Below are positions 3,637 through 25,825 of a stretch of DNA of 64,000 bases, in pieces; position 1 is the first letter of the stretch, and each line of letters begins with the position of its first letter. Below the pieces are notes generated by a model. The model had not been told where the DNA came from, searched no databases, and worked only from the letters and a program-made list of their open reading frames with translations. Where the stretch lies: the IMG/VR virus record IMGVR_UViG_3300047550_003584, positions 12,777 to 76,776 of that record; one strand, given 5' to 3'. Made by a program: the position numbers and the translations under genes. This DNA is from a virus.

Positions 3637-3790
3637 AGGTTACCTCTTCCCCTGGTGAAAGCCAGGGGTTTATGTAGCCCTCAATACCTGCTTCGTTGAT
3701 ACGAATTCGTATCGCGCGTGCGGGTTTTTGGGTATTCGCGGCACCGCTTCGCCAAGAACCGTTCTCGCGCAAGGGATCTCAGCGATTGCT

Positions 3791-3815
3791 CGTCAAGCTG
3801 GACGTTAAACGCAGC
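3791..3815 (+). repeat. Family A pseudoknot-type element (A1, divergent)
   Basis: CGTC-AAGCTG-GACG-TTAAAC-GCAGC; loop GCTG pairs with downstream CAGC. Confidence 0.7.
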
Positions 3816-3840
3816 AGACAACTCGGCGGTTGGTCACGAC

Positions 3841-3874
3841 CTTGGCATCCACACTTCAGTGGTGTAAGACCAAG
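3841..3874 (+). repeat. Family B bulged-stem element (B1)
   Basis: CTTGG-CATCCAC-ACTTCA-GTGGTG-TAAGA-CCAAG; compensatory variant of CTGGG/CCCAG. Confidence 0.75.
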
Positions 3875-3895
3875 CTCAACCTACGGAGTAACACC

Positions 3896-4057
3896 GTGAC
3901 CATCAACCCCACCAAGCTGCTCTCTCGTGAAGAGGTTGGCGACAAGATCATGCTTGAGATCCTTGATCTCCTTGAGCATGGTCATAGCCAGACTCTCGGT
4001 GAGCAGCACCTCCAGGTCATTAAGTCCTACGTGGACGAGATGCTGGAGAACAACTGA
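3896..4057 (+). CDS. Hypothetical early protein
   Basis: GTG start after leader; MTINPTKLLSREEVGDK... Confidence 0.7.
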   Translation: MTINPTKLLSREEVGDKIMLEILDLLEHGHSQTLGEQHLQVIKSYVDEMLENN

Positions 4058-4121
4058 TCCGTTAAAGCGGGTGACCAGGTGCAAACCCTGGTCCAGTTAT
4101 TGCCCCCTGTGGAGATGGGCA
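4052..4121 (+). repeat. Family D T-loop three-way-junction element (D1)
   Basis: AACTG/CAGTT closing stem, CCG-TTAAAG-CGG, GACCAGG-TGCAAAC-CCTGGTC, then a TATTGCCC..GGGCA hairpin. Confidence 0.75.
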
Positions 4122-4142
4122 CCACACACACGGAGAACACCC

Positions 4143-4424
4143 GTGATTGACCTGACTACTGGTTGGGTATCGCATCCTAATGTACCAGGTGGTTTCCACT
4201 TGGTTTACATCGATAGCCTCGTTGGCGAAATCTCTATCGTTACTGGACCCAAGGGTTCAGGACTGATGGCAGCCAACGATCCAGGTAATGAACCTACCTA
4301 TGAGGTATGGTTTCCAGGTATGTGCGACCCGACCGGTTACCTGACTCTTGCCCAAGTGAAAGGCATAATCATGTTCATGCGTCAGCGTGAGCAACAACGC
4401 CTTGCTTGGCAAGATGAAGACTGA
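4143..4424 (+). CDS. Hypothetical early protein
   Basis: GTG start; MIDLTTGWVSHPNVPGG...TYEVWFPG. Confidence 0.75.
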   Translation: MIDLTTGWVSHPNVPGGFHLVYIDSLVGEISIVTGPKGSGLMAANDPGNEPTYEVWFPGMCDPTGYLTLAQVKGIIMFMRQREQQRLAWQDED

Positions 4425-4487
4425 GTCCGTATAAGCGGCATTGGCAGGTGCAAACCCTGCCTTCAGTATTGCCACAATCCAGTGGCA
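4420..4487 (+). repeat. Family D element (D2)
   Basis: ACTGA/TCAGT, CCG-TATAAG-CGG, GGCAGG-TGCAAAC-CCTGCC, then GCCAC/GTGGC hairpin. Confidence 0.75.
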
Positions 4488-4505
4488 CCTACCTTATTCA
4501 ACACC

Positions 4506-4667
4506 ATGACTTACACCGTCATCATCAAGCATCACGACGTATTCTCTCAGTCCTATCTCCAGGGCTGTGAGCAATCGTTTGATACTGAGCAGCAAGCTCA
4601 GGACTACATTCAAACATTTGAGGATTGGGAACAAGATCTCCTGGAGATTGACTTCAATCCTTTCTGA
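4506..4667 (+). CDS. Hypothetical early protein
   Basis: MTYTVIIK..., acidic, 53 aa. Confidence 0.7.
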   Translation: MTYTVIIKHHDVFSQSYLQGCEQSFDTEQQAQDYIQTFEDWEQDLLEIDFNPF

Positions 4668-4728
4668 GTAACAGGCGTGATGCCGGGGGATCGAATCCCC
4701 CACTCAGTATTGCCACAACTCAGTGGCA
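4664..4728 (+). repeat. Family D element (D3)
   Basis: CTGAGT/ACTCAG, GGC..GCC, GGGGG-ATCGAAT-CCCCC T-loop, then GCCAC/GTGGC hairpin. Confidence 0.75.
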
Positions 4729-4748
4729 TTCACCTACACCACACCACC

Positions 4749-4937
4749 GTGATCAAAAGCGAATCCGTATTTGCATCTATCATCGTTACTGCATTTGGGC
4801 TAGGCATCCTTGCTGGCCCAGTCGCTGGGTACTTCATTGATCGGGCAACTGCCAAGCAATGCATCACCCATGACTGGCCTAAGGAGGCTAACCAAGTGCA
4901 TCGTGATTGGTGCATTACCAACGGCTACAAGATCTAA
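4749..4937 (+). CDS. Small membrane protein
   Basis: GTG start; N-terminal TM helix and a Cys pair. Confidence 0.7.
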   Translation: MIKSESVFASIIVTAFGLGILAGPVAGYFIDRATAKQCITHDWPKEANQVHRDWCITNGYKI

Positions 4938-4939
4938 GA

Positions 4940-4987
4940 CTCCTGCTCTGGGGACTACGGTCCCCTCAACAGGACTCAACATCCTGT
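4940..4987 (+). repeat. Family C element (C1)
   Basis: TCCTG...GGGGAC-TACG-GTCCCC...ACAGGA-CTCAACA-TCCTGT. Confidence 0.7.
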
Positions 4988-5009
4988 ATCCCACTGCTAA
5001 CTCAACACC

Positions 5010-5219
5010 ATGTCAATGATCAAGCACTGCACTGTCGTACTTTCCAACGGCAACGTCGTTGGGATGCATGCAAACGAAGCAGATGCAGAAATGCAAGCAA
5101 TGGAGCTGGCATACGAATGGCGCAGACAATCTGACTGCGGCTCTGAAGTACCAGCGCCTAGGCTTGCCGTCCTGTCATTCAATGACTGGATGCAACTGCA
5201 GAAAGAGTTTGCATTCTGA
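5010..5219 (+). CDS. Hypothetical early protein
   Basis: 69-aa ORF with CTCAACACC leader. Confidence 0.7.
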   Translation: MSMIKHCTVVLSNGNVVGMHANEADAEMQAMELAYEWRRQSDCGSEVPAPRLAVLSFNDWMQLQKEFAF

Positions 5220-5220
5220 C

Positions 5221-5293
5221 TCCTGCACTTAACCCTTCCGTTGTGGTATGTATGTACTACGACGGTGGGTTTTCTGCAGGCAATCAAGCCTGC
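5221..5293 (+). repeat. Family C element (C2)
   Basis: TCCTGCA-CTT-AACCC-[long hairpin]-GGGTT-TTC-TGCAGG-N8-CCTGC. Confidence 0.75.
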
Positions 5294-5313
5294 TATCCAA
5301 CTCAACTCAGACC

Positions 5314-5502
5314 ATGACTGCATTACACATCCGCAAGAACATTGCAGCACTGCTGGTCAACACAGCTGCTGCTGTAGAGAATGCCAAGCTTCCTGACAAG
5401 GAGGCTGCTCGTACCAAGCTGCATGACATCCGTTGTCGTGCAGCGGCACTCATGATGCCGAACGATATGGCATTCGTCATCACTCCCAAGAACAACATCT
5501 GA
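5314..5502 (+). CDS. Hypothetical early protein
   Basis: MTALHIRKNIAALL... Confidence 0.7.
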   Translation: MTALHIRKNIAALLVNTAAAVENAKLPDKEAARTKLHDIRCRAAALMMPNDMAFVITPKNNI

Positions 5503-5505
5503 TCC

Positions 5506-5709
5506 ATGTCAAACAATCACTTCTTTGATTCCTGTGTGGCTATCATTCTTGGCACTAGCGTGGGCTTACTCGCTTCTGTTGGAGCGCAGAAGCTTCTCAA
5601 CAGACACTACCAAGCAACGTGCCATGACCGACCAGGACACAATTTGATCTACACCCAAGGATTCTTGGGTGATACGTACTACTGCATCAACAGTAAGTAC
5701 ATGAACTGA
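5506..5709 (+). CDS. Small membrane protein
   Basis: TM helix plus C-terminal C...GDTYYC. Confidence 0.7.
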   Translation: MSNNHFFDSCVAIILGTSVGLLASVGAQKLLNRHYQATCHDRPGHNLIYTQGFLGDTYYCINSKYMN

Positions 5710-5710
5710 T

Positions 5711-5783
5711 CTCTGCACTTAACCTTTCCGTCTTGATACGAATTCATATCGGACGGTAGGTTTTCTGCAGGGTTCTCCCTGCA
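5711..5783 (+). repeat. Family C element (C3)
   Basis: CTCTGCA-CTT-AACCT-[hairpin]-AGGTT-TTC-TGCAGGG-TTCT-CCCTGCA. Confidence 0.75.
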
Positions 5784-5814
5784 CTACACCACACGACACC
5801 ACCAGGACTCAACC

Positions 5815-6060
5815 ATGACTCCTAAAGCTGTTGAACAACTGCTGACCCAAGACGCACGTCTATTGGCTCGCAGAGACTCCCCTGCCATTGACCAAGAGAT
5901 TGAAGAACAGCGTCAAGCTGCTCTCGATCTTTTCTTCCAATGGCAAGATGGGTTAGCCCAGTTTCAAGACCTAGTTCCCTTCGTTGCCATCGTGCAGCGT
6001 AAAGTAGATCTCAACCGGGATCTGCTGCGGTGGGAACGCAAGCAACTGGAACAAGACTGA
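5815..6060 (+). CDS. Hypothetical early protein
   Basis: 81-aa helical ORF. Confidence 0.75.
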   Translation: MTPKAVEQLLTQDARLLARRDSPAIDQEIEEQRQAALDLFFQWQDGLAQFQDLVPFVAIVQRKVDLNRDLLRWERKQLEQD

Positions 6061-6111
6061 CTCTTGCACTGAGGGCCTCCGGGCCTTCTCTGCAGGACTC
6101 AACATCCTGCA
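6061..6111 (+). repeat. Family C element (C4)
   Basis: TCTTGCA-CT-GAGGGCC-TCCG-GGCCTTC-TC-TGCAGGA-CTCAACA-TCCTGCA. Confidence 0.75.
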
Positions 6112-6136
6112 CCTAATCTTTATCTCAATTTAACCA

Positions 6137-6418
6137 ATGGCACTAACACTTACGCCACGTGAAATTTTTGATGCATTGCAACCTATCAATGCAAATTCAG
6201 ATGCTTGTTACTTGGAATTTACAGGTGACATTGTTTATTTGCATTGGACCACAGATAAGGAGAACGCTCAAATGTATGTAGACAACATCTTTGAGTGTTT
6301 AGATATCAAACTCTATGGTCATTGGGTAGACATCTGCGGGCAACACGAACGTGGTACCCCAGTTACATTGCCTAATGCAGCTTTGTTTGATTGTCGTTAT
6401 ATCCTTGCAACCAACTGA
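6137..6418 (+). CDS. Hypothetical protein
   Basis: 93-aa ORF in the operon. Confidence 0.7.
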   Translation: MALTLTPREIFDALQPINANSDACYLEFTGDIVYLHWTTDKENAQMYVDNIFECLDIKLYGHWVDICGQHERGTPVTLPNAALFDCRYILATN

Positions 6419-6419
6419 T

Positions 6420-6623
6420 ATGAGGACAATCTACTCCATGGGCAAGGGCAAGTATATCCATTTGGATTCTTACGGTGAGTCTCATGAGACGCGCCGTTGG
6501 TCTATTGCCATTGCCACCTTCTCCCTCATCATCGCCACCATCACCGCTACAGCGTTGGTTGGCGTTGATATGACACAACTCAATCCTCAACCTATCCAGG
6601 GACAAATCAATGAATCTCGCTGA
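6420..6623 (+). CDS. Small membrane protein
   Basis: MRTIYSMGKG..., one TM helix. Confidence 0.7.
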   Translation: MRTIYSMGKGKYIHLDSYGESHETRRWSIAIATFSLIIATITATALVGVDMTQLNPQPIQGQINESR

Positions 6624-6957
6624 ACACACTCAAGTCCTCGAAGCACGTATCAATGCTTTGATTGATAAGCTGCTCGAGAAGTACCACAAACAGTACGGAG
6701 AACTGGGCATCGAGTTTGACATTGTATGTGGCACTAAGTACTACAAGATCATTCAACGTAACATCAGACGTAACTGTCTTGGTGGCTACGAAGGCAGTGT
6801 CCATGCATTTGTCCACAGACAATCAGGTGCTGTCTACAAGCCTGCTTCGTGGAAAGCACCGGCCAAACACGTACGTTACAACTTGCTTGATGACGTATCA
6901 TATGGGACCTGCCTACACAATGCCGACTGGGCAGGCAGCTATCTGTACATGAAATAG
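6610..6957 (+). CDS. Conserved cyanophage hypothetical protein
   Basis: KYYKI...SVHAFV...GAVYKPASWKAPAKHVRYNLL...ADWAGSYLY motif, common in cyanophages. Confidence 0.85.
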   Translation: MNLAEHTQVLEARINALIDKLLEKYHKQYGELGIEFDIVCGTKYYKIIQRNIRRNCLGGYEGSVHAFVHRQSGAVYKPASWKAPAKHVRYNLLDDVSYGTCLHNADWAGSYLYMK

Positions 6958-6965
6958 CTACAATT

Positions 6966-7005
6966 CCCTGGGCATCCTCACGTAAGTGAGGTATAAGTCC
7001 CAGGG
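6966..7005 (+). repeat. Family B element (B2)
   Basis: CCCTGGG-CATC-CTCAC-GTAA-GTGAG-GTATAAGT-CCCAGGG. Confidence 0.8.
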
Positions 7006-7034
7006 GTTACATCATTTCAACCCAACATCTAACC

Positions 7035-7409
7035 ATGCGCAATCGCATCTCACTCGTCAAAGAAGATCGGATCTGGCATCTTAGGTGCCAGGGCTATGGC
7101 TACGAATCAATCGGCAGCATTGTCAACTGCAATCCTGGTTACATGACGATTATCTTACGTCGTGTAAGGCAGCGTCCACCGATTGAAGAAGATCCGATCA
7201 AACGAGGAAGAAGAACGAACTTCCTAAGTGATGCACAAGTAGATGACATTAGAGCACGCAAGGCCAAAGGCGAGACTTGTCATTCAATCTCCAAGGATTA
7301 TGACTTAAGTGAGTCCGCCATCTGGAACATTGCAAACCATGTCACCTACAAAGAACCAGCTTATGACAGCGGTTATCATTACAACTTTAGTAATCGGCTA
7401 ACACGCTGA
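7035..7409 (+). CDS. Putative DNA-binding protein (tandem HTH)
   Basis: Two HTH-like segments (GYGYESIGSIVNC; GETCHSISKDYDLSESAIWNI). Confidence 0.7.
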   Translation: MRNRISLVKEDRIWHLRCQGYGYESIGSIVNCNPGYMTIILRRVRQRPPIEEDPIKRGRRTNFLSDAQVDDIRARKAKGETCHSISKDYDLSESAIWNIANHVTYKEPAYDSGYHYNFSNRLTR

Positions 7410-7413
7410 TCAA

Positions 7414-7466
7414 CCTGGGCATCCACAATTGAGAACTCTTCTCAATAACGTGGTGTAAGTCCCTGG
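7414..7466 (+). repeat. Family B element (B3) carrying a Fur-box-like palindrome
   Basis: CCTGGG-CATCCAC-[ATTGAGAACTCTTCTCAAT]-GTGGTGTAAGT-CCCTGG. Confidence 0.75.
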
Positions 7467-7495
7467 CTTACTGTCCATCTCACTCAACTCACACC

Positions 7496-7642
7496 ATGAG
7501 AGACCCTAATTTCATTGACGAGCAACGTAACGCTGATTTGCTTGATGCCATGGCTGATCTTGCGTACCAGCAGGAGCAAGCCATGCGTGAAGAATACGAA
7601 CTCAACCCACCAGAACAGGAGACTTACGATGACCAAGCCTAA
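7496..7642 (+). CDS. Small acidic protein
   Basis: MRDPNFIDEQRNADLLDAMADLAY... (48 aa, below the ORF-track cutoff) with typical leader. Confidence 0.7.
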   Translation: MRDPNFIDEQRNADLLDAMADLAYQQEQAMREEYELNPPEQETYDDQA

Positions 7643-8060
7643 GTACACACTACGGCAAGCATGGGATGACGGTGACATCATCGTCATCCTGATCGCAATC
7701 ATCTCAATTATCATCACGGAGTTTGCATCATGTCTTACATCTCAGAACTCAAGAAGTTCTACCCCAAGTCCTACAAAGTGCGTTACGCAGTCAACGCCTA
7801 TAAGGTCCACAAGTACTTCGAACACGAAGATCCAACGGTCATTGTTATCCACGAAGTCAGGCTCTGCTACGGCGGACCAGAGGAAGGTGGATGGTGGTAC
7901 CACGCAGGAGACCCTGTCCTCAGCCACTGCATCTTTTCCAAGAAGCAGGCGATCCAAACCTTCATCCAGTACTTCGAAGAGTACGAGATCGAAGGGCAGC
8001 CGTCTCTTGGAGATACAACAACTCGATCCAACATCGAGCTTAGCTTCTCCAACGAGCTAG
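7629..8060 (+). CDS. Possible membrane protein with Ser/Thr-rich tail overlapping the next gene
   Basis: MTKPKYTLRQAWDDGD plus a TM helix; the tail is in another frame over 7730-8098. Confidence 0.45.
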   Translation: MTKPKYTLRQAWDDGDIIVILIAIISIIITEFASCLTSQNSRSSTPSPTKCVTQSTPIRSTSTSNTKIQRSLLSTKSGSATADQRKVDGGTTQETLSSATASFPRSRRSKPSSSTSKSTRSKGSRLLEIQQLDPTSSLASPTS

Positions 8061-8098
8061 CTAAGGCGTATCCTGAGTCCCGTCCACACTATTGCTAA
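7730..8098 (+). CDS. Conserved phage hypothetical protein
   Basis: YGGPEEGGWWY and C-terminal YPESRPHYC motifs. Confidence 0.8.
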   Translation: MSYISELKKFYPKSYKVRYAVNAYKVHKYFEHEDPTVIVIHEVRLCYGGPEEGGWWYHAGDPVLSHCIFSKKQAIQTFIQYFEEYEIEGQPSLGDTTTRSNIELSFSNELAKAYPESRPHYC

Positions 8099-8101
8099 GC
8101 C

Positions 8102-8344
8102 ATGCCAGCAACAACACTACCTGCACTCAGCATCAATCAACGCAACCTCTACGCATACTTCCTGAATCACAGGAAGAAGTATGGGAATACACCATGTTTT
8201 GTACCTAAGCTTCCAGCGCAAAGCTCAAGGCTTGAGCAATATCTCCAGGCCTTGGTGCGACTGGAAGAATACGGATTGATACGTGTAGACAGAAGCAGTG
8301 ATAACTACACAGCATGGATCATGCTTGCGCCTAAGAGCGCATGA
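8102..8344 (+). CDS. Hypothetical protein, winged-helix-like
   Basis: LSINQRNLYAYF...ALVRLEEYGLIRV. Confidence 0.7.
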   Translation: MPATTLPALSINQRNLYAYFLNHRKKYGNTPCFVPKLPAQSSRLEQYLQALVRLEEYGLIRVDRSSDNYTAWIMLAPKSA

Positions 8345-8420
8345 CGTAGGTATTTATACTTAATATTGTTTGCTATTGGAAAATAGCCAATACATGCCAA
8401 TACTTCAGTCATAGCCTCAC

Positions 8421-8463
8421 TCCTGGGCAGCACCGATGTAAGTACGGTGTATAAGTCCCAGGA
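8421..8463 (+). repeat. Family B element (B4)
   Basis: TCCTGGG-CAG-CACCG-N9-CGGTG-TATAAGT-CCCAGGA. Confidence 0.8.
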
Positions 8464-8491
8464 TTTACCTCAACCCAACTTCACATCAACT

Positions 8492-8779
8492 ATGGAACAA
8501 GCTAAGAAGTATCCAGCAATTGACTGGACCAAAAATGAGTACCATCAACTGCAGCTGGTAGTTGATGCACTCAAAGCCATTTGTGCTCGCGAAGATAAAC
8601 GTCATCAAATGGACGAGCATCTCGATCCACACATGCGTAACGTTATCGATGAAGTGATCGGTATGTTAAGCGATGAGCTTGACTACGATCCAACGCCTAA
8701 CGAACCTGGTGAACCACCCATGACAATGAATGAAATGCACAGCGCTGCATGGAAAGAACATCAGGAGATGCATCGGTAA
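8492..8779 (+). CDS. Hypothetical protein
   Basis: MEQAKKYP...GEPPMTMNEMHSAAW. Confidence 0.75.
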   Translation: MEQAKKYPAIDWTKNEYHQLQLVVDALKAICAREDKRHQMDEHLDPHMRNVIDEVIGMLSDELDYDPTPNEPGEPPMTMNEMHSAAWKEHQEMHR

Positions 8780-8797
8780 CAGCCGACCAGGGGGACT

Positions 8798-8811
8798 AGT
8801 ACATAAGTACT
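8798..8811. promoter_or_regulatory. Cyanobacterial LexA-box-like palindrome
   Basis: AGTAC-ATAA-GTACT matches RGTACNNNDGTWCB; intergenic. Confidence 0.5.
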
Positions 8812-8924
8812 TCCCCCCTCAAACTCCCCCGTTGGAGCACCAGGGAATCCTTGGATTTATATAGGAAATACTTATGTCCCAATCCTTGACTTCTCTGGTA
8901 TTTATATCTAATTAACCTTTGATC

Positions 8925-9428
8925 ATGACACACCTTCCATTGCCTTCACTTGATTGGCTTAAGCAATATCTTGCTGTTGATCCAAGTCAGCCTAGTGGTT
9001 TGATCTGGATCAAGAACTATGCCAACAGGAAGGCGCAAACAATGGCAGGTTCCGTGAATACAAACGGATATTATCAAGTCAGAATCAAAGGTAAACTTTA
9101 CCTAACTCATAGAATCATTTATTTTTTACTAAACGAGAGAGACCCAGCTGACCAGGTTGTTGATCATGTTTACTCCAAAGCTAATCATGTAGATGTTCGT
9201 TGCGCAAACTATGTTCAGAATTCTTTCAACTCTAAACATCAAGCGACTGTTACATCGAGTGATTACAAAGGAGTTACATGGGATCGCAACAAATGGAAGG
9301 CTCGTATTTCCTATGGAGGAATAACTTATGACTTAGGAAGATTCGATGATGAAATCAAAGCTGCTCAAGCATATGACCTCAAAGCTGTCGAGCTTGATCC
9401 AGAGTTTGCATTTCTTAACTTTCCATGA
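8925..9428 (+). CDS. HNH endonuclease with AP2 domain
   Basis: HRIIY..VVDH..N..N; YKGVTW..KWKARI..LGRFDDEIKAAQAYD. Confidence 0.9.
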   Translation: MTHLPLPSLDWLKQYLAVDPSQPSGLIWIKNYANRKAQTMAGSVNTNGYYQVRIKGKLYLTHRIIYFLLNERDPADQVVDHVYSKANHVDVRCANYVQNSFNSKHQATVTSSDYKGVTWDRNKWKARISYGGITYDLGRFDDEIKAAQAYDLKAVELDPEFAFLNFP

Positions 9429-9480
9429 GGGGCTTGCGCTCCCTGGTAGACTTACCTCGTTACTCAACTCATCTCAACTC

Positions 9481-9690
9481 ATGACTGACAACACTCCTTG
9501 CATACCAGACTCCATGGATATGCAAAGACTTCAAGCTATGCAACTTGTTGCCAAGATGAAGGAATCTGCAGAGAGACATGGCATTGGATTCATTGGTGGA
9601 TTCATCTCACCTAACGGTGAGAAGTTTGTAATGACCAACATGACAAACGATGATGACATCAATGCACTAATGCCGGAGGATCTCAAATGA
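9481..9690 (+). CDS. Hypothetical protein
   Basis: MTDNTPCIPDS..., CTCAACTC leader. Confidence 0.75.
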   Translation: MTDNTPCIPDSMDMQRLQAMQLVAKMKESAERHGIGFIGGFISPNGEKFVMTNMTNDDDINALMPEDLK

Positions 9691-9926
9691 CTCAACAACA
9701 CCCTGTTGTTCCAACCAAATATCTATTTGATGCTTGGCGTCAACAATACATAGAACATGAGAAAGACTTTAGTGAACTTCTTACTGAAGCTGCACAGTGG
9801 GGTGCAGATATTGAATTAGAAGAATGCTGTGCATTATTCAAATCTAATTCGGTATGTGGCACCAAGTTCCAACGTGACTCTTCTGTGCGGGATCTACGCA
9901 ATAAACGTAGACCGAAACCGAAGTAA
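9687..9926 (+). CDS. Modular 'QHP..P / AAQWGAD.EL / RRPKP' family protein, copy 1
   Basis: Shares blocks with 15031 and 17397. Confidence 0.8.
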   Translation: MTQQHPVVPTKYLFDAWRQQYIEHEKDFSELLTEAAQWGADIELEECCALFKSNSVCGTKFQRDSSVRDLRNKRRPKPK

Positions 9927-9993
9927 ACAACATTGACAGTATCAATTACTGGTACTGAAGATGAACTTGAACAACTCATTCGTAAACTCAAAG

Positions 9994-10191
9994 ATGACCG
10001 ACAAATCTCCGTTAAATTTTGACAAGACTATTGCTGGATTCAACGTCACTGAAAAGGGCGTTCAATCGTACAGCAAATCGTTTCAACTTGGTCCGTTTCA
10101 ACTCACACTCAATGCTCGTGAGTCTGGTGTCCGTGGATCAATCAGTATCCCTGGCACAGGATTAAGCAAACGAAACATTAAATTATTCTAA
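9994..10191 (+). CDS. DUF4236-like small protein
   Basis: KSFQLGPFQLTLN...GSISIPGTGLS. Confidence 0.6.
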   Translation: MTDKSPLNFDKTIAGFNVTEKGVQSYSKSFQLGPFQLTLNARESGVRGSISIPGTGLSKRNIKLF

Positions 10192-10192
10192 A

Positions 10193-10228
10193 GATCCTGG
10201 GCATCCTTACGGTGTAAGTCCCAGATCC
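10193..10228 (+). repeat. Family B element (B5, minimal)
   Basis: CTGGG-CATC-CTTAC-GGTG-TAAGT-CCCAG. Confidence 0.8.
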
Positions 10229-10251
10229 CGTCCACTTACTCAACTCAACTC

Positions 10252-10437
10252 ATGTCTGCTTACGTCGAGAACCTTACCCTGTTTGATCGCATCAATCTTG
10301 CTGCCTGCGCACAACGCAGGGCATCAGCAAATGTGTTGGATTCAACACGATTTAAAGGCGAGTTTGACACGGCACGTCTGTGGACTAAGTATCGCCTTGT
10401 CAAGACCACTACCTATTCCTACATCGAGGACAACTAA
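10252..10437 (+). CDS. Hypothetical protein
   Basis: 61 aa, CAACTCAACTC leader. Confidence 0.7.
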   Translation: MSAYVENLTLFDRINLAACAQRRASANVLDSTRFKGEFDTARLWTKYRLVKTTTYSYIEDN

Positions 10438-10688
10438 TGACAGTACTTGCTATTGAACACACATCATTTACTGAGACTCATGTCACAGTTACAGCAGTTG
10501 TTGACGAAATGCGCCTGCTCTATCGGGCAACTTACCTTGACCCTGAAGAGTGGGCTCCTGCATTGTGTCAAGCAACTATTGAACTGGATCCAGAGGAACC
10601 GATTCCTCTTGACGAAGATGGCTTCTGCAGTTATCTTGATCAGCTCGATCCTCAATGGGAATTACTAGACAAGGATGACATCGAATGA
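10437..10688 (+). CDS. Hypothetical acidic protein
   Basis: ATYLDPEEWAPALC motif; coupled stop/start. Confidence 0.75.
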   Translation: MTVLAIEHTSFTETHVTVTAVVDEMRLLYRATYLDPEEWAPALCQATIELDPEEPIPLDEDGFCSYLDQLDPQWELLDKDDIE

Positions 10689-10867
10689 TTGGATTCTCAA
10701 TTGAATTCAAACGTTGGTACTTTGTACTACGTGGTCCTAAAGGTCGCGTCTATCTAGCTACTGGCTTTGCTAAGCACATGCCAGTATTTGTTAATAACCG
10801 TAGCATTCATCTTCATGATCTTACTGATGATGATATGAGTTACGGCACTTATCGTTGCGACCTTTAG
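10685..10867 (+). CDS. Hypothetical protein
   Basis: ATGA overlap with the previous gene. Confidence 0.65.
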   Translation: MIGFSIEFKRWYFVLRGPKGRVYLATGFAKHMPVFVNNRSIHLHDLTDDDMSYGTYRCDL

Positions 10868-10872
10868 TTAAT

Positions 10873-10901
10873 CGTCCTGGACATGACGTTAAACTGTCCA
10901 G
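10873..10901 (+). repeat. Family A element (A2)
   Basis: CGTC-CTGGACAT-GACG-TTAAAC-TGTCCAG. Confidence 0.85.
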
Positions 10902-10920
10902 TTCAATTACATTTTGCCCA

Positions 10921-11220
10921 ATGGAAATCAATTCTCCAACACCTCCTTTAGATCTTGTCAATGATTGGATGACGCATTGGTATGACGACAACCAAACAGA
11001 TGAACTGCAATATGTGTACGTTACAAACAAAGCTGCAATGTGGGGTGCCATCTGGGGTGCTACCAATGCTTTGGAAACAGCTATCAAAGACACGGCACCT
11101 GTTCATTGGCGTGTAGCAGGTGGCGCAGAAGATGGCCAACAGGTAGTGCGTGTTATTGATCTAATGGAATGGCTTGAACAATTCCGCAAAGAATACGAAG
11201 AAAAGATGTCTTGTAATTAA
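10921..11220 (+). CDS. Divergent/chimeric member of the TPP..LV..W / AA.WGA family
   Basis: TPPLDLVNDW...KAAMWGA, then an unrelated C-terminus. Confidence 0.75.
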   Translation: MEINSPTPPLDLVNDWMTHWYDDNQTDELQYVYVTNKAAMWGAIWGATNALETAIKDTAPVHWRVAGGAEDGQQVVRVIDLMEWLEQFRKEYEEKMSCN

Positions 11221-11225
11221 TCAAC

Positions 11226-11253
11226 CGTCCTGGACATGACGTTAAACTGTCCA
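11226..11253 (+). repeat. Family A element (A3), identical to A2 over 28 bp
   Basis: CGTCCTGGACATGACGTTAAACTGTCCA. Confidence 0.85.
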
Positions 11254-11280
11254 TTCCACCACACACCACCACACCATGCA

Positions 11281-11823
11281 ATGAAACCTAGGCCACTTCC
11301 ACCTGTTGACTACTTGCAACAAATGTTTTATCTAGATACAACATCTCCTAGTGGTTTACGTTGGCTTAAAGCGCCAAGTGCCTGGACCAAAGCTAACTCT
11401 GTTGCAGGTGTTCAACGTACTAAAGATCATTACTGGCGTGTTCGCTGGAAGTATCAAGGTAAAGCGGTGGATTACATGGCTCATCGGATTGTGTATGCAC
11501 TACAACATGGCTCTGATCCAGGGGATATGTTCGTAGATCATATACACAATGACAAAGACAACAACAAACCATTGCGATTGGCTACTAAATTACAAAACTC
11601 ACATAATCGTAACGGTCGCAAAAACACAAGCAGCATTTACAAAGGTGTCTGTTTAATTAAAGCGACTGGTCGATGGCGTGCATCCATTCGTGTTGATAAA
11701 CAATTCAAACACATTGGTGTGTACGCAACACAAGAAGAAGCAGCCTTGGCTTACAACCAAGCTGCTTTGCTAAACTTTGGTGAGTTTGCTCGCCTTAATC
11801 AAATCAATTCAACCGAGAACTAA
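11281..11823 (+). CDS. HNH endonuclease with AP2 domain
   Basis: AHRIVY..VDHIHNDKDNN..LRLAT..QN..N; YKGV..WRASI..IGVYATQEEAALAYN. Confidence 0.92.
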   Translation: MKPRPLPPVDYLQQMFYLDTTSPSGLRWLKAPSAWTKANSVAGVQRTKDHYWRVRWKYQGKAVDYMAHRIVYALQHGSDPGDMFVDHIHNDKDNNKPLRLATKLQNSHNRNGRKNTSSIYKGVCLIKATGRWRASIRVDKQFKHIGVYATQEEAALAYNQAALLNFGEFARLNQINSTEN

Positions 11824-11825
11824 TC

Positions 11826-13562
11826 ATGCAATTTGCTCTACCATCTAATCTGCAAACTGAACTGATTGCCTATGATCCAACGCTCAAGGTGTTGGCTAAG
11901 CAAGCTAACAAACCTGCAGCCAAGAAACCTACATATCCACTTGGCAAGATTCCTTGCTTGATACCAACGCATATTGTGCGTGAAGCTGATCAGCAAGATG
12001 TAATTGCTCAGATCAATCAGCGTCCAGCACCACAGCGTTATCAAGTGTTTACTACGCCTGTAGATGTAGCAACACCACAGGCTAGGCTTAAGGTCATTGC
12101 CATCCTGTATCACTACGAACAAGTGTGGTATGCAGCATGGCTACCTTCTAAAAAGGAGAAGGATGATTATGTGTTTGGTCATGCATATGCATTCAAGAAC
12201 ACATCAACTACACATAAAATTGCGCCAACTTGGATATGGAATAGTAAAGATGATTGCGTTGTCCACGACATTGGTCGTGGCTCACAACTCTTTGTGCATA
12301 GCAAAGTTGTAACTAAAGCAGATATCTGTGGTCAAAACTATGATAGCTGGCGTAGTTATCCATGGCGAGCAGGTAACCTTTACTGCCAGAAGGGTTATAC
12401 AATTCGTGACAATGTTGTTACTGAATTTGATAACAGCCTAAGGGAAGATCTCCCAACATGGGAGGATTCACGTGGATTGTTTGACAGAATACGCTGCAAG
12501 AATATCTTTGATGCAGCAGAAATACCGTCAATGATGTCAAAACATCTTGACGAAACTCAAGGCTTGACTGTTGATAACTTCATTGCTGGTTCACTTGCAT
12601 TCAAAGAAGAGCATGGTTATAGCTCCATAACATACTCTATTGTCACGAGGATTCAGCACATTGTCGCTAAACCTACTATCAAGAAACTATTGCAAGCAGA
12701 GTTGAATCGTAGTATTGATGCATACAATGATCCTAATAACAAACATCAGCAACCTATTAAGCAAGGCTTTTTAACTTTTGTACAGATTCTTAACTCAATT
12801 GAGTGGATCAATAACATTTGGCCAGACTGCCCTATTGATTACTATCAGACTTACTTCAAGGAACTCAAGTATCTTCGCTTGACTGAAGTACGTGTACGCA
12901 ACGGAGCTACACAAGAACCTTGTTTAATTAATTGGTTACGTGCGCACATGCCTATTGCATCATTGTTTACAATCATGCGCAAGTACTTGGATAGACAACT
13001 TACTGAATACAATGGTCGCTGGGTTGATAGTGATGTTGGTTACCAGCGTCAACGCTTTGGTGAACTAAACGATACATTCTCCATGATGAGTAAGATCTTG
13101 GATGCAGGTAAAACACTAGAGCCACCAAAGCGTTGGCGACTGACTGAGTTCCATGACTACGTGCAATCTGAGGCATGGAAGATTGAGAATCCAAAGGAAT
13201 CTTTACGGCAAGATTTATTCCCTGAACCTATTAAAGTCAAGCGTCTTGATAATGTATGGACATTCTTCCAGCCTATTGATACACATCAACTATCTATGTG
13301 GGGTCAAGCCGTACGCAATTGCGTTGGCTCTGCATCCCACTATGCGGATGACATCAAGAAACGTAAGCACTTCATTGTGCTGTGCATGATTGATAGCAAG
13401 CCCACCTTCACAATTCAATTGGTTGTGGACCAGGGCATGATGTCTGTCAAACAGATTGCTGGTGTTGGTAACCAGCGATTGACTGACGACCAACGTGAAG
13501 CTTACACAGAAGCTTTCCGTGAGGTCTTGCAGCAACGCGAGAAACAGCTAGCATGTAGCTGA
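11826..13562 (+). CDS. PcfJ-domain protein
   Basis: C-terminal FHD..., QPIDTHQLSMWGQAVRNCVGS..Y...TFTIQL...QIAGVGN pattern typical of PcfJ-like domains. Confidence 0.7.
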   Translation: MQFALPSNLQTELIAYDPTLKVLAKQANKPAAKKPTYPLGKIPCLIPTHIVREADQQDVIAQINQRPAPQRYQVFTTPVDVATPQARLKVIAILYHYEQVWYAAWLPSKKEKDDYVFGHAYAFKNTSTTHKIAPTWIWNSKDDCVVHDIGRGSQLFVHSKVVTKADICGQNYDSWRSYPWRAGNLYCQKGYTIRDNVVTEFDNSLREDLPTWEDSRGLFDRIRCKNIFDAAEIPSMMSKHLDETQGLTVDNFIAGSLAFKEEHGYSSITYSIVTRIQHIVAKPTIKKLLQAELNRSIDAYNDPNNKHQQPIKQGFLTFVQILNSIEWINNIWPDCPIDYYQTYFKELKYLRLTEVRVRNGATQEPCLINWLRAHMPIASLFTIMRKYLDRQLTEYNGRWVDSDVGYQRQRFGELNDTFSMMSKILDAGKTLEPPKRWRLTEFHDYVQSEAWKIENPKESLRQDLFPEPIKVKRLDNVWTFFQPIDTHQLSMWGQAVRNCVGSASHYADDIKKRKHFIVLCMIDSKPTFTIQLVVDQGMMSVKQIAGVGNQRLTDDQREAYTEAFREVLQQREKQLACS

Positions 13563-13613: not shown

Positions 13614-13835
13614 ATGACTGACTACACCGACGATCAGCTACTTGCCATGGCTATGGCCAACATTGGTGAGTACATCACGGACAACTCACCACAGTACATC
13701 TTGATTGAAGAAGATCCTCGCAATGAGGATGATTACGATAGCTGGACTTACGGAATGGAAGTCCTACCTCAAGACCACACTTGGCAGTCAGATTCAATTG
13801 ACGTAAGTCCAAGTGATGCAGACATGGCGGAATAG
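13614..13835 (+). CDS. Small acidic protein; stop codon lies inside tRNA-Leu
   Basis: 73-aa ORF; TAG at 13833-13835. Confidence 0.7.
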   Translation: MTDYTDDQLLAMAMANIGEYITDNSPQYILIEEDPRNEDDYDSWTYGMEVLPQDHTWQSDSIDVSPSDADMAE

Positions 13836-13903
13836 GTAGACGCAACGGACTTAAAATCCGTAGGCCATTGGCCGTGAGAGTTCAAGTCTCTCTGTCTGTA
13901 CCA
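13818..13903 (+). tRNA. trnL: tRNA-Leu(UAA) with encoded CCA
   Basis: GCAGACA/TGTCTGT acceptor, ACGGA-CTTAAAA-TCCGT anticodon arm, long variable arm, GAGAG-TTCAAGT-CTCTC T arm, ACCA. Confidence 0.95.
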
Positions 13904-14305: not shown

Positions 14306-14333
14306 GGCCCCTGCGCAAGCGGGGGTCTTTCTC
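14306..14333 (+). terminator. Rho-independent terminator
   Basis: GGCCCCTGC-GCAA-GCGGGGGTC-TTTCT. Confidence 0.65.
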
Positions 14334-16526: not shown

Positions 16527-16658
16527 TGAACTTAAGCAGTGGCGATCAGAAGGTCGCGGCGCTTTGTTTTTTTAATTCAGTGGTGGCATGCTTGGACTCC
16601 ACATCCTTGCGTGCCAGCTTTTTCCGTTTGTCCACCAGGTAGACGATCAGTGCTTTGT

Positions 16659-16811
16659 TCATTCGATTTGTCCTCCAGTGACGTAAGGAAAGTAGCAGAT
16701 GTTACGGTAAGTCAGGCAAAGCCAGGGACGGTGGGCTAAGTTCCACCAAGCTCTGTCTTTTTGAGCCTGCTCCTCTTGGTTGTACTTGCAACCACGATAC
16801 GTTAACGTCAT
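16659..16811 (-). CDS. DUF4278-like small protein
   Basis: MTLTYRGCKY...LTYRNICY; two (L)TYRGxxY-type repeats; isolated minus-strand gene. Confidence 0.7.
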   Translation of the reverse strand: MTLTYRGCKYNQEEQAQKDRAWWNLAHRPWLCLTYRNICYFPYVTGGQIE

Positions 16812-16818
16812 GGGTTCT

Positions 16819-16842
16819 GTATCTATTGATACGGAAAGTATA
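16819..16842 (-). promoter_or_regulatory. -10 box TATACT with adjacent NtcA-type site GTA-N8-TAC
   Basis: GTATCTATTGATAC at 16819-16832; TATACT (minus) at 16842-16837. Confidence 0.55.
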
Positions 16843-16897
16843 TGACGATTGATGTATGTGATGTTGTTCACCTTGTAACACAACACCAAACAATCTC

Positions 16898-17396: not shown

Positions 17397-17729
17397 ATGA
17401 CACAAGAACATCCCATCACCCCACCGCCAGAGCTGGTGCAGCAGTGGCGAGAGCAGGCTCCGCGTTGCCGTGACAGTGGCATTGCTCGTGAAGACTGGCT
17501 GATAACGCGTGCCGCCCAATGGGGCGCCGACCAGGAGCTGGAGGCGTGCTGTGAGTGGCTGGAGGACTGGGTGGGCAATGACAGTTATGCAATCCCGATG
17601 CGGGCCGCCAGACGCCCCAAGCCGCCGAGCTTGAAGGAGCAAGCGTTGGCTGCTGCTGCTGAACTTGAAGGCTTTAAGGGCGTTGACATCATCCGCCGCG
17701 CCCTTGAACAACTACCCGACAACGAGTAG
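17397..17729 (+). CDS. Modular MTQEHPITPPPELV family protein, copy 3
   Basis: GC-rich; paralog of 15031. Confidence 0.85.
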   Translation: MTQEHPITPPPELVQQWREQAPRCRDSGIAREDWLITRAAQWGADQELEACCEWLEDWVGNDSYAIPMRAARRPKPPSLKEQALAAAAELEGFKGVDIIRRALEQLPDNE

Positions 17730-17743: not shown

Positions 17744-17771
17744 GGACCTGAGTATGTCCCTAAACTACTCA
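17744..17771 (+). repeat. Family A element (A4)
   Basis: GGAC-CTGAGTAT-GTCC-CTAAAC-TACTCA; compensatory changes in both stems. Confidence 0.85.
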
Positions 17772-20851: not shown

Positions 20852-20879
20852 ACGTCCTAAGCATGACGTTAAACTGCTT
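20852..20879 (+). repeat. Family A element (A5)
   Basis: ACGTC-CTAAGCAT-GACGT-TAAAC-TGCTT. Confidence 0.85.
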
Positions 20880-21970: not shown

Positions 21971-21975
21971 CTTCC

Positions 21976-22002
21976 CGTCCTCTGGTACGACGTTAAACTG
22001 CC
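21976..22002 (+). repeat. Family A element (A6)
   Basis: CGTC-CTCTGGTAC-GACG-TTAAAC-TGCC. Confidence 0.75.
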
Positions 22003-22024
22003 TGTCCTTGACTACGAACTAACC

Positions 22025-23499: not shown

Positions 23500-23718
23500 T
23501 TAATCGTTGATAGCTGGGAGCTTATGAGAGTAATTATCTTTCATAAGCTCCATTGCATCAGCAACTAATCCTTTGATTGCAATCTGACGCTGCGTGGCAA
23601 TCTTGGTTAACAAGGTTGCCATTTCCTTTAGCTCACTCATTGAACTGCAATCATTAATGCTACGTATCATCTTCTCTTGCCAGAACATATCCTCTGGCGA
23701 CATTTCAAATTTCAACAT
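23500..23718 (-). CDS. NblA-like protein (picocyanobacterial type)
   Basis: MSPEDMFWQEKMIRSINDCSSMSELKEMATLL...QRQIAIKGLV two-helix pattern; own TAGAAT box. Confidence 0.55.
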   Translation of the reverse strand: MLKFEMSPEDMFWQEKMIRSINDCSSMSELKEMATLLTKIATQRQIAIKGLVADAMELMKDNYSHKLPAIND

Positions 23719-23797
23719 GTTATTCAATTGGTTCAGTTTATTCTACGCCTTCATTTAAACTTGACTTGATTCCACTGAATGTGTTAAGGATTACCAA

Positions 23798-24001
23798 ATG
23801 AAACCTGAAGACAAAGCCGCACTCAAGGTTGGTGGTGCCACGGCTCTCATCGTTGGTACCATTGCGTTTTGCGCACCAAACCCTGCTGCTTGGGCCGCTG
23901 TGATCTGGGGATCGTATAAGATGGGCAAGCAGGCCAGGGATCGAGAGATTGACCGGCAAGCCAAAAGACGTTGGTCAACTGACCAAGATCACTGCATCTA
24001 A
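23798..24001 (+). CDS. Small membrane protein
   Basis: Hydrophobic N-terminal half. Confidence 0.65.
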   Translation: MKPEDKAALKVGGATALIVGTIAFCAPNPAAWAAVIWGSYKMGKQARDREIDRQAKRRWSTDQDHCI

Positions 24002-24019
24002 CACCACACCATTCAACTC

Positions 24020-24964
24020 ATGACAACGCAACTTCAGCAACAAGAACTTAACGCTGCTCAGTCTCTGATCTACACACGTACTAACATTGGTCGTGCGTTC
24101 CAGGATTTTGATGACACCGAAATTGCTGGCATTTATCTGCGAGATGACAATTGTCTTGTGGTGCGTCGTGATGGTAGCGAGCAGGCTTACCCACGGGAGC
24201 TGATTAAGCTAGCCTTCACGAATTACACCAACCGTCTCAAAGATTTCTTTTCTTACCTTGGCCCTAATTATCGTGGCCCTAGTGTATGGCACAACAATGC
24301 TTACGTATTGTTTAAGGGCTGGAACTACACACACGCACTCGGACACCTGACTTCCAATGCAAAACTACAAGCTCACTGGGCAGACAAATTTATACACATA
24401 TCAGACGTTGCCAAAATCACAACCATCCTTCAGTCTGACCAAACGGACATTGGCCATTTGGTTGCGCCGGACGGGATGCGGCTTGCGAATCGGCCGATTG
24501 ATATGGACTCTGAACTGGACGATGGCACCAAACAAGACTCGATGTTTGGCGAACCTACATGCTCATGTGGGTCCTTTCAACGTCAGCTCAGTAACCTATC
24601 TTTTTTCCAAGAAGAGATCCAGGGATTTAAACCATGGTGCATCCACCTGAGTTGGTTTAACAAGTACCGTGAGCTGCTGTGCAAGCGCACAGATGCGCGT
24701 AACGCTAGTCCCAGTGGAACACCTGAGAAGTGTGTGGCATGGTTCTATGCACCGCCCAAAGACTCGGTCAGTGATGGACGTTTTGTTTTGTTGTATACCA
24801 ACCAAGGGGCACAAGCTCCGCTGACCCATTGGCGCAACTACAAACCTAACGAAGTGTTCACTCAACACCATGCATGGGATCTATTCTTCAATATGATGGA
24901 TGCGTCCTATGTGCCATTCCCTGGCATTGCTTTACCTCAACTCAAGTCTGCTATCAAGAAATGA
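24020..24964 (+). CDS. SWIM zinc-finger protein
   Basis: TCSCGSF...PWCIHL. Confidence 0.7.
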   Translation: MTTQLQQQELNAAQSLIYTRTNIGRAFQDFDDTEIAGIYLRDDNCLVVRRDGSEQAYPRELIKLAFTNYTNRLKDFFSYLGPNYRGPSVWHNNAYVLFKGWNYTHALGHLTSNAKLQAHWADKFIHISDVAKITTILQSDQTDIGHLVAPDGMRLANRPIDMDSELDDGTKQDSMFGEPTCSCGSFQRQLSNLSFFQEEIQGFKPWCIHLSWFNKYRELLCKRTDARNASPSGTPEKCVAWFYAPPKDSVSDGRFVLLYTNQGAQAPLTHWRNYKPNEVFTQHHAWDLFFNMMDASYVPFPGIALPQLKSAIKK

Positions 24965-25179
24965 CTGACGACATTCTTGAATACGCACGTCAATTAGCTA
25001 TGCGACCACGCAACGACACAATCATGGGCGACAAACGTTATGATCTTGAGATTCCAGAGGACACTCATTGGGAGCTTGTAAAGCTAGCTGCAGACCTTAA
25101 AATGCACCACGAAGACTACGCACAAAACGTATTAATTGGTCATGTTGAATCTGAACTGGATCGAAAAGCTCAAGCTTGA
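24961..25179 (+). CDS. Hypothetical protein (ribbon-helix-helix-like)
   Basis: YDLEIPEDTHWELVKLAADLKM. Confidence 0.65.
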   Translation: MTDDILEYARQLAMRPRNDTIMGDKRYDLEIPEDTHWELVKLAADLKMHHEDYAQNVLIGHVESELDRKAQA

Positions 25180-25360
25180 ATGTATTGATGAAGAAGATGG
25201 CACCATGTCCATCAACATTGAGTGGGATGAAAAAGATCCTGACCTTGACTACTGGACTTCTCTAGGTCCAGAAGGTCAAGAAGAATTTGTTCTCACTGCA
25301 CTGCGTGAAGCCTGTGCCTCTTACACTGACACCGAATCTTTTGATGATCATGTCGATTGA
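25136..25360 (+). CDS. Hypothetical acidic protein
   Basis: EEDGTMSINIEWDEKDP. Confidence 0.65.
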   Translation: MVMLNLNWIEKLKLECIDEEDGTMSINIEWDEKDPDLDYWTSLGPEGQEEFVLTALREACASYTDTESFDDHVD

Positions 25361-25751
25361 CACCTACGGCCTTAGTTCTGAGCAGTATACCGAGTTCTTC
25401 CATAAAAACTTGCGGTTTGCTGCCAAGCTTTACCTTGATACCTGCAACATCTTGAGCAGTGAAGGAGTCGGTAATATTGACTTCAAAACTGTCTCAGAGA
25501 TGTACCAGGAAACTGTATACACAACAAACGATGATTGTCGTCGTTACCAAAAGAGCAACAACCCTGAGGTATTGAAAGAAGTTACCGCTGATCTTTATGG
25601 TATTAGTCCCAGTAGGGAAGAGCTGATGGATGAGATTCAATCGCTTAGCGCCAAGGTGGAATCCCTTGTTGACTACATTGGTAACTTGGTCACTATCACT
25701 ACGGCAGGCCTTGAGGGTATTGCCACTACCCTTGATGACAAGGTAGACTGA
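25350..25751 (+). CDS. Hypothetical protein
   Basis: MSIDTYGLS..., coiled-coil C-terminus. Confidence 0.75.
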   Translation: MSIDTYGLSSEQYTEFFHKNLRFAAKLYLDTCNILSSEGVGNIDFKTVSEMYQETVYTTNDDCRRYQKSNNPEVLKEVTADLYGISPSREELMDEIQSLSAKVESLVDYIGNLVTITTAGLEGIATTLDDKVD

Positions 25752-25776
25752 GCACGCACAAACCCTGCAGAGTTGC

Positions 25777-25804
25777 CGTCCTGGTCATGACGTAAAACTG
25801 ACCA
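25777..25804 (+). repeat. Family A element (A7)
   Basis: CGTC-CTGGTCAT-GACG-TAAAAC-TGACCA. Confidence 0.85.
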
Positions 25805-25825
25805 CCACACCATCTCAGCTCAGTC

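Follow-up and report, generated by a model that had tools for sequence, protein, structure and literature searches.

The genome of a putative cyanophage carries 19 structured elements at successive gene boundaries of its early and middle region. They fall into four families, here called A, B, C and D. The window that we analyzed is a stretch of 64,000 bases, positions 12777 to 76776 of a 76,776-base IMG/VR record (IMGVR_UViG_3300047550_003584). It shares its gene order with Synechococcus phage S-EIV1, and the family A DNA polymerases of the two are 69% identical; by sequence we assign the genome to an S-EIV1-like Synechococcus phage. What we observed of the elements (their structures, covariation, strand specificity, positions and conservation, a match of family A to the coremin motif of plant viruses, and a spread into other phages) points to folded RNA. 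We consider it quite possible, if still short of probable, that these modules define the 5′ end of each cistron and protect it against 5′-to-3′ decay, with family D acting also as a tRNA-like processing signal.

An ordered array of intergenic elements

We scanned the entire record on both strands and read the stems by anchored parsing and from MAFFT alignments. A preliminary description of the window had counted seven A, five B, four C and three D elements, and the whole-genome scan reproduced this count exactly (Table 1). All 19 lie on the + strand between window positions 3791 and 25804. Nothing convincing was found elsewhere in the genome, in agreement with the earlier statement that none had been noticed beyond 26 kb or on the minus strand. 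The order along the genome, also as first described, is unmixed: one A and one B, then three D, four C, four B and finally six A.

Each unit runs from a stop codon through the element and a leader of 16 to 35 nucleotides (nt) to a start codon. As had been noticed, the leaders have no Shine-Dalgarno sequence, and they are poor in G (0 to 3 residues). A1 is exempt from the leader rule because B1 sits between it and the start codon. Of the 19 elements, 14 start between −8 and +8 nt from the upstream stop codon. All three D copies and three of the four C copies overlap that codon with their first bases, and four of the seven A copies begin exactly 5 nt past it.

A chance origin is excluded by two results. 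The 10-mer GACGTWAAAC has six exact occurrences, every one of them intergenic and on the + strand, and the nhmmer matches of the other families in the window and 19 relatives were likewise confined to that strand (B, 69/69; C, 36/36; D, 31/31).

Table 1. Window coordinates of the 19 elements and of the tRNA-Leu gene (folds are predictions; S1 and S2, first and second stem; ORF, open reading frame)
Feature	Position	Strand	Description
A1	3791..3815	+	pseudoknot, S1 CGUC/GACG, S2 GCUG/CAGC; in the long first intergenic region, directly before B1
B1	3840..3875	+	two-stem hairpin, 5′ bulge CAU, 3′ bulge UGUAAGA, outer stem CUUGG/CCAAG
D1	4052..4123	+	minihelix: 5-bp closing stem with stop TGA, side hairpin, 7-bp stem, loop UGCAAAC; then 3′ hairpin
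D2	4420..4489	+	D1 architecture; 6+6 bp stack
D3	4664..4730	+	D1 architecture; 6+5 bp stack, loop AUCGAAU
C1	4938..4993	+	short form: 5′ strand CCUG, inner hairpin, middle CAGG, 3′ strand CCUGU
C2	5218..5295	+	long form, 47-nt inner hairpin; middle strand pairable with either flank
C3	5708..5784	+	long form; inner hairpin tip GAUACGAAUUCAUAUC recurs at 3696
C4	6059..6111	+	short form
B2	6966..7005	+	
B3	7414..7466	+	long inner hairpin
B4	8422..8462	+	
B5	10196..10224	+	minimal form: 2-bp inner stem and 4-nt loop
A2	10873..10901	+	pseudoknot, 5 nt past stop codon
A3	11226..11253	+	pseudoknot, duplicate of A2; upstream of HNH-AP2 endonuclease gene
A4	17744..17771	+	variant: compensated S1 GGAC/GUCC, linker CUAAACUAC
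A5	20853..20879	+	upstream of SSB gene; orthologous copy in S-EIV1
A6	21976..22002	+	upstream of DUF5895 gene; orthologous copy in S-EIV1
A7	25777..25804	+	linker UAAAAC; upstream of 37-codon ORF at 25826, then Gp157-like gene at 25943
tRNA-Leu(UAA) gene	13818..13903	+	genuine tRNA, between same-strand ORFs; outside the four families

Folds of the four families and their counterparts

That pairing is kept despite sequence change, as the preliminary description had it, is clear in A, B and D but weak in C. Family A is predicted to be an H-type pseudoknot, with covariation in both stems. All six pairs of S2 covary among 40 unique copies, and slid controls collapse. Over all loci we collected 135 unique copies with 66 different stem sequences, in which G-U pairs account for 86 of the 733 stem pairs on the sense strand. 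S1 is CGUC/GACG in 108 of these copies. The other 27, window A4 among them, carry a different but perfectly complementary S1, where about 2 such copies were expected; the replacements include GGAC/GUCC, UGUC/GACA, CGAG/CUCG, CAAC/GUUG and others. The invariant parts are a first loop (L1) of 1 nt (C), the linker U(U/A)AAAC and the closing pairs. L1 has a single nucleotide in 67 of the 135 copies and two nucleotides in 43.

The invariant letters of A fit the 20-nt coremin motif, GUCCGAAGACGUUAAACUAC. Coremin is an RNA that resists Xrn1 and is found in beny- and cucumoviruses, among other RNA viruses; mutagenesis has shown the AAACUA of its spacer (A15-A20) to be essential, a natural U-to-A variant (U14A) exists, and its "Watson-Crick-type" form is a pseudoknot with a 1-nt L1 (PMC6546385, PMC10520033, PMC10321173). 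The motif acts in vitro without protein cofactors, blocks scanning ribosomes and stimulates −1 frameshifting. Like coremin, A has a GUC/GAC 5′ stem free to covary, within a first hairpin (hp1) of 3 to 4 base pairs (bp) that tolerates compensatory change. Its loop opens with a pyrimidine (C in A) and closes A-U, and its linker is GU(U/A)AAACU, including the same natural U14A variant. As in the Watson-Crick-type form, a 1-nt L1 bridges to a second stem, in which the loop bases pair with the bases following AAAC.

The two motifs also differ. Stem 2 has 4 to 7 bp in window A and 3 in coremin, and the second loop base is U in A and G in coremin. Where the coremin spacer reads GUUAAACUAC, A has an invariant U(U/A)AAACU, with base 20 mostly G and A only in A4-type copies, and there is no second hairpin (hp2). 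Because loop, base 20 and hp2 depart, we class A as a coremin variant and not as a member. A also sits in DNA phages, where the enzyme to be resisted would be RNase J or RNase E and not Xrn1.

Other identities proposed for A were rejected. The Pistol ribozyme and the preQ1-I riboswitch were candidates for their shared topology and "ACGUUAAA" letters, but neither Rfam model matched. The integron attC core (GTTRRRY within GTTAAAC) was judged coincidental, since A has no inverse core site. Recoding by −1 or +1 fails at A2 for want of a usable slippery site, although the element can be read through in an open frame, and at A3 for want of such a frame.

Family B consists of two stems separated by bulges, CAU on the 5′ side and U(G/A)UAAG(U) on the 3′ side. 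All four Watson-Crick pair types were found at each of the three outer-stem positions beside a GG/CC core. The inner stem can be of any length, down to 2 bp with a GNRA or UUCG-type loop. The bulge letters UGUAA fit the T-loop pentamer in the core of class 3 exonuclease-resistant RNAs (xrRNAs) of plant viruses. That core is built on a T-loop (UGGAA in ST9a) with a U-A reverse Hoogsteen closure and an intercalating bulged A (PMC6299227, PMC12397905). The docked bulged A and UGGAA of the class 3 T-loop have as possible counterparts UGUAA facing CAU in B, and UGCAA in the loop of D. Class 3 xrRNAs are, like the window's elements, small, intergenic and placed ahead of coding (subgenomic) RNAs (PMC6299227, PMC12397905). 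Their T-loop is apical, whereas that of B lies between two stems on the 3′ side, and they have an AGY motif and a ring-closing pseudoknot where B has no conserved AGY, no clear pseudoknot and no Rfam match. A K-turn, loop E and the 11-nt tetraloop receptor, compared with the B loop, misfit in their letters, and a likeness of minimal B to the decoding-site helix of 16S rRNA (GGUG.AAGUC) was dropped.

The middle strand of family C, CUGCAGG, has two alternative potential partners: a 5′ strand by the stop codon, in which case a variable inner hairpin is enclosed, and a 3′ strand. Pairing on the 5′ side is conserved and hardly covaries. On the 3′ side, a single compensatory change was seen in the hairpin, from GCAGG/CCUGC to ACAGG/CCUGU. 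The role of C is the least clear of the four. A palindromic hairpin (GATACGAATTC.TATC) stands both at 3696-3730 and at 5733-5767, the latter being the tip of the C3 inner hairpin, where its orthologues also have it. Its presence in both the first long intergenic region and C3 suggests an exchange of hairpin modules between elements.

All four helices of family D covary, and 15 of 20 pairs are changed on both sides. The closing stem holds the upstream TGA and runs straight into a stem with a 7-nt T-loop-like loop. The resulting contiguous stack is 12 bp long in 12 of 20 copies, 11 in six and 13 in two, and it is partitioned variously as 7+5, 6+6 or 5+6. ATTGCC follows the stack in constant register, and then comes a second hairpin. 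The loops (UGCAAAC, UGCAAUC, UUCGAUU and similar) have the T-loop features U1, A5 and a G-C closure; a subfamily with AUCGAAU deviates at loop position 1. From these features we predict that D is a tRNA-like minihelix with a T-loop on a 12-bp stack corresponding to the coaxial acceptor- and T-like stack of tRNA. It resembles the acceptor/T-arm minihelix in that stack, in its G-C-closed 7-nt T-loop and in the unpaired A after the stack. It differs in having no D arm, anticodon arm or CCA; a 13- to 19-nt junction and a small hairpin stand in their place. Neither ARAGORN nor the Rfam tRNA model called D as a tRNA.

Rfam 15, including its preQ1, pistol and xrRNA models, gave only tRNA above the gathering threshold and matched no element, in keeping with the earlier failure to assign any family to an Rfam model. 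At lenient settings (E ≤ 5 or E ≤ 10), the elements were still unmatched save for unrelated snoRNA models below threshold over B4 and A2.

Conservation in relatives and spread among phages

The same four families are present in 18 IMG/VR relatives (anchor protein 64-90% identical) and in S-EIV1 itself. With few exceptions they also keep the zones in the order (A,B), D, C, B, A; one exception is a B downstream of the PcfJ-like gene in three relatives. Copy number per zone varies, from 1 to 5 for D, 1 to 7 for B, and 1 to 3 for C in the relatives (4 in the window). A further B-type element without a window counterpart is found in S-EIV1, between two genes at KJ410740 65517-65540 (L265 1218-1241); it is on the strand opposite the early genes and sense to its neighbors.

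The relatives differ from one another by complete units of element plus gene. An A-gene-A arrangement is reduced to a single A in some, and swaps between relatives in the D zone terminate inside D elements. Local duplication and recombination of such cassettes are the most likely origin of the zonation. The preliminary description had proposed that the elements are homology anchors for exchange, and cassettes flanked by elements of one family are indeed gained and lost. Breakpoints of long alignments, however, are 2.6-fold over expectation in the elements and equally enriched in other intergenic sequence, so the elements may aid cassette exchange but exchange is not established as their function. 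The HNH-AP2 gene at 8925-9428 is an insertion of about 540 bp (within 8900-9440) found only in the window and missing from all relatives compared. The flanks of this insertion resemble the two halves of a degenerate B-type element, and 9440-9471 is like the 3′ side of B3.

The + strand genes among which the elements lie span about 3.4 to 31 kb, with small ORFs of unknown function first and replication and recombination genes after them: a PcfJ-like protein, ThyX (named by synteny with annotated S-EIV1), the polymerase, SSB, DUF5895 and a Gp157-like protein. Scattered among them all are several genes for HNH-AP2 homing endonucleases. Two ORFs in the middle region, at 15031-15290 and 17397-17650, have stretches that are 82-94% identical and are a recent gene duplication. 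Also amid the middle genes, 370 nt at 16527-16897 hold no convincing + strand ORF and none of the four families. Genes for tRNA-Pro and tRNA-Cys are on the minus strand at 31124-31355.

The view that the system is specific to its lineage did not hold. A and B occur as general motifs in many unrelated viral contigs, and the elements themselves would be general-purpose phage modules. Minimal B was found in at least 119 viral-contig stretches, against about 1 expected by chance. In 596 Gb of prokaryote genomes it occurred 7 times where about 17 were expected, and at most two of these look real. Being abundant in viral contigs and no more frequent than chance in cellular genomes, B is a possible marker of phage sequence. 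In contigs without S-EIV1-like proteins, B is always in sense orientation. In S-CBWM1-like contigs, which make up a single lineage with capsid proteins 74% identical, the major capsid gene has a B upstream of it. Contigs with a terminase most similar to those of the cyanosiphoviruses S-CBS1/3 have B between their terminase and portal genes. The S-CBWM1 and S-CBS3 genomes contain no B. A, for its part, lies upstream of scaffold genes in three other phages.

The classical coremin pattern itself was found in at least 113 viral-contig stretches, compared with 23 for a reversed control pattern. Among 83 unique copies, 19 lie directly 3′ of a T-tract. Tandem copies whose stems are compensated are among them, and in one contig a classical copy adjoins an A-type copy. 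Their loops (CGAA and CGAAAC in IMG/VR contigs) follow the YG..AD pattern of coremin, as does CGAAAU in the cultured Synechococcus phage S-CBWM1 (MG450654). The latter has two classical motifs, at 12398-12419 and 12627-12647 (L275 2416-2470 and 2643-2690), with the loops CGAAAU and CGAAAAU. They lie 2 to 4 nt past tRNA-Glu and tRNA-Thr within a cluster of 21 tRNA genes, and each is then followed by a hairpin, so that hp2 is present. These are sites at which tRNA processing would make new 5′-monophosphate ends. In the IMG/VR loci, an ARAGORN-based count gave no coremin copy after a tRNA, a count that probably missed cases such as L303 and L316.

Three further sets of copies stood out. In a Cloacimonadota contig from a metagenome-assembled genome (MAG; PWOA01000051, L259 686-2040), within 30 nt downstream of a B comes an A-type pseudoknot with S1 CGAG/CUCG, and further on there are two more compensated A-type pseudoknots, each upstream of a gene with a Shine-Dalgarno site. 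A perfect A-type motif (L033 2383-2410) lies 158 nt 5′ of a gene for a tombusvirus-like coat protein (S domain) in a 3,959-base contig that may be from an RNA virus or a crucivirus. Contigs labeled as giant-virus MAGs (L343, L328/L352) have coremin-type motifs in tandem, three consecutive in L343.

Our search for xrRNAs in bacteriophages found no relevant paper among the matches listed. A full-text literature search for the motif letters retrieved unrelated primers only, and megablast, a search for near-identical DNA, gave nothing in a phage collection.

Proposed protection of message 5′ ends and other explanations

The 19 elements would act as cis-acting folded RNA modules in the intercistronic spacers of long rightward early and middle transcripts. 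Each would border, on the 5′ side, the unstructured and G-poor leader on which ribosomes load for the next cistron, marking and shielding that segment of the mRNA. A would be a mechanical roadblock to 5′-to-3′ decay by the RNase J exonuclease or by 5′-end-dependent RNase E, the likely enzymes, both of which cyanobacteria possess. B probably plays the same role as a T-loop-based module, and C possibly does. RNase P or RNase Z could cut at D, after which the downstream message would be capped by the 3′ hairpin of D. The stability of each small gene cassette would in this way be its own, independent of upstream events. A folded flaviviral xrRNA is known to block bacterial RNase J1 in vitro (PMC5760640). 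Of the functions listed in the preliminary description, processing and stabilization gained from the nearness of A to coremin and from the tRNA-like minihelix of D; antitermination and control by temporal class gained nothing.

Known systems offer partial parallels. The early genes of phage T7 have RNase III processing hairpins between them, and bacteria have 5′ stabilizer hairpins. The layout of stop, structure, leader and start, repeated along a polycistronic early transcript, is common to these and to the window. RNase III needs longer structures than A or minimal B provides, however, and the window has four unrelated folds with conserved letters in loops instead of a long duplex. Transcripts of mitochondria are punctuated by tRNAs, and minihelices are substrates of RNase P and RNase Z. 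The window transcript likewise carries a real tRNA gene, that for tRNA-Leu(UAA), whose excision would also sever it at that point; cleavage at D is only predicted.

Several points weigh against roadblock and processing functions. The hp1 loop of coremin (YGAD, YGNNAD or YG..AD) is not found in window A, whose loops (C-U-N4-A-U/C) form stem 2. Nor does hp2 come right after the spacer there, since the bases 3′ of AAAC are taken up by pairing with the hp1 loop and the unstructured leader comes next; hp2 is strictly required for the Xrn1 resistance of BNYVV-type (beet necrotic yellow vein virus) motifs. A pseudoknot alone is insufficient for resistance, because the frameshifter pseudoknots tested in the literature do not stall Xrn1. 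B and C are without a demonstrated relative among xrRNAs, and pairing of the B bulge with downstream sequence, at 23% against 7-10% in controls, is a weak enrichment. An RNase P cut at D would delete the stop codon of the upstream gene. The fixed order of four families across the lineage is left unexplained by a roadblock. Finally, a search for sequencing runs that contain window positions 3401-13400 listed no RNA run for the phage. We infer the function of the elements, including nuclease resistance, cleavage and the identity of the enzymes.

If each family were instead the operator of a distinct phage or host RNA-binding protein that switches the translation or stability of its zone over time, the conserved zone order would be expected, as would unpaired letters that stay invariant across relatives with anchor proteins only 64-90% identical, and the region does encode many small early proteins of unknown function. 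We think this unlikely. No RNA-binding protein family was recognized among the proteins scanned, a lineage-specific binding protein is disfavored by the occurrence of A and B in many contigs that have no detectable proteins in common with this lineage, and the coremin likeness of A offers a mechanism that needs no protein. Equally improbable, in our estimate, is an action on ribosomes, in which blocks 0 to 8 nt past the stop codons would halt terminating or scanning 70S ribosomes and uncouple cistrons, or would serve as standby or enhancer sites for leaders without a Shine-Dalgarno sequence. Coremin's effects on scanning and frameshifting, the exact 5-nt spacing of four A copies from the stop codon and the G-poor leaders all fit such an action, and a ribosome terminating on the 5′ strand of C could reset its alternative pairing. 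Elsewhere, however, the same motifs trail terminator-like T-tracts or tRNA genes, where no ORF ends, and there is no conserved slippery site or open downstream frame (judged by eye, at A2 and A3 only).

The orientation of the elements along the direction of transcription, at the head of each cassette, and the copies directly 3′ of intrinsic terminators in other phages would also suit a role in transcription, whether as promoters for a phage-modified polymerase, put- or nut-like antitermination sites, pause elements or factor-dependent terminators. This is less likely again. The elements had been described as lacking T-tracts and −35/−10 boxes, and indeed no sigma-70-like site coincides with any of them; such sites number 17 in 19.5 kb against 29.5 in shuffled sequence. 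Intrinsic terminators were rejected for want of T-tracts, with only two weaker terminator calls falling inside elements (C2 and C4). The two clearest + strand terminator-like hairpins with T-tracts, at 3649-3668 and 14306-14327, are outside them and unlike them in appearance. The conserved parts are variably spaced, with stem inserts, and no RNA polymerase or sigma factor was recognized among the proteins scanned. Put and nut systems use far fewer copies than 19, and the position of B inside a co-oriented run of structural genes in other phages makes it an unlikely promoter site. Least probable of all, in our judgment, is a function in the DNA itself, as single-strand hairpins or repeats serving as recombination anchors of the PeSL or attC kind, homing-endonuclease targets or priming sites. 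It would account for the A-gene-A cassettes present or absent among relatives, the swaps that end within D, the breakpoints in elements and the HNH-AP2 genes beside A3 and inside a B-like element. The PeSL cassettes of T4-type phages are similar in that small early ORFs bounded by repeated structure are gained and lost. In PeSL, though, a sigma-70 early promoter stands beside the stem-loop, and this defining promoter is absent from the window's elements, in which the structure is under selection, beyond mere repetition. Against a function in DNA there are, besides the equal breakpoint enrichment of other intergenic sequence, the tolerance of G-U in pairing on the sense strand only, the full co-orientation of elements with genes, in unrelated phages too, and the fact that the closest sequence relatives function as RNA.

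The protection of message 5′ ends may have a wider bearing. With slightly less confidence than for the window itself, we suggest that xrRNAs could extend beyond eukaryotic RNA viruses: coremin-class pseudoknots and at least one T-loop module (B) would be widespread in DNA phages from many lineages, shielding the 5′ ends of certain messages from bacterial 5′-to-3′ decay, and S-EIV1-like cyanophages would be an extreme case, with four classes in conserved order along a whole early and middle transcript. Covariation is explicit in both stems across the many natural phage copies, a resource absent from the plant-virus literature, and these copies bear on the still unsolved fold of coremin. If the elements halt bacterial RNases, nuclease-resistant folds so far associated with flaviviruses and plant viruses would extend to phages. 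Bacterial RNA biology would gain a compact (about 28 nt), protein-free and portable 5′ stabilizer, and the differing expression of genes within long phage operons, such as those for capsid and scaffold, would be accounted for.

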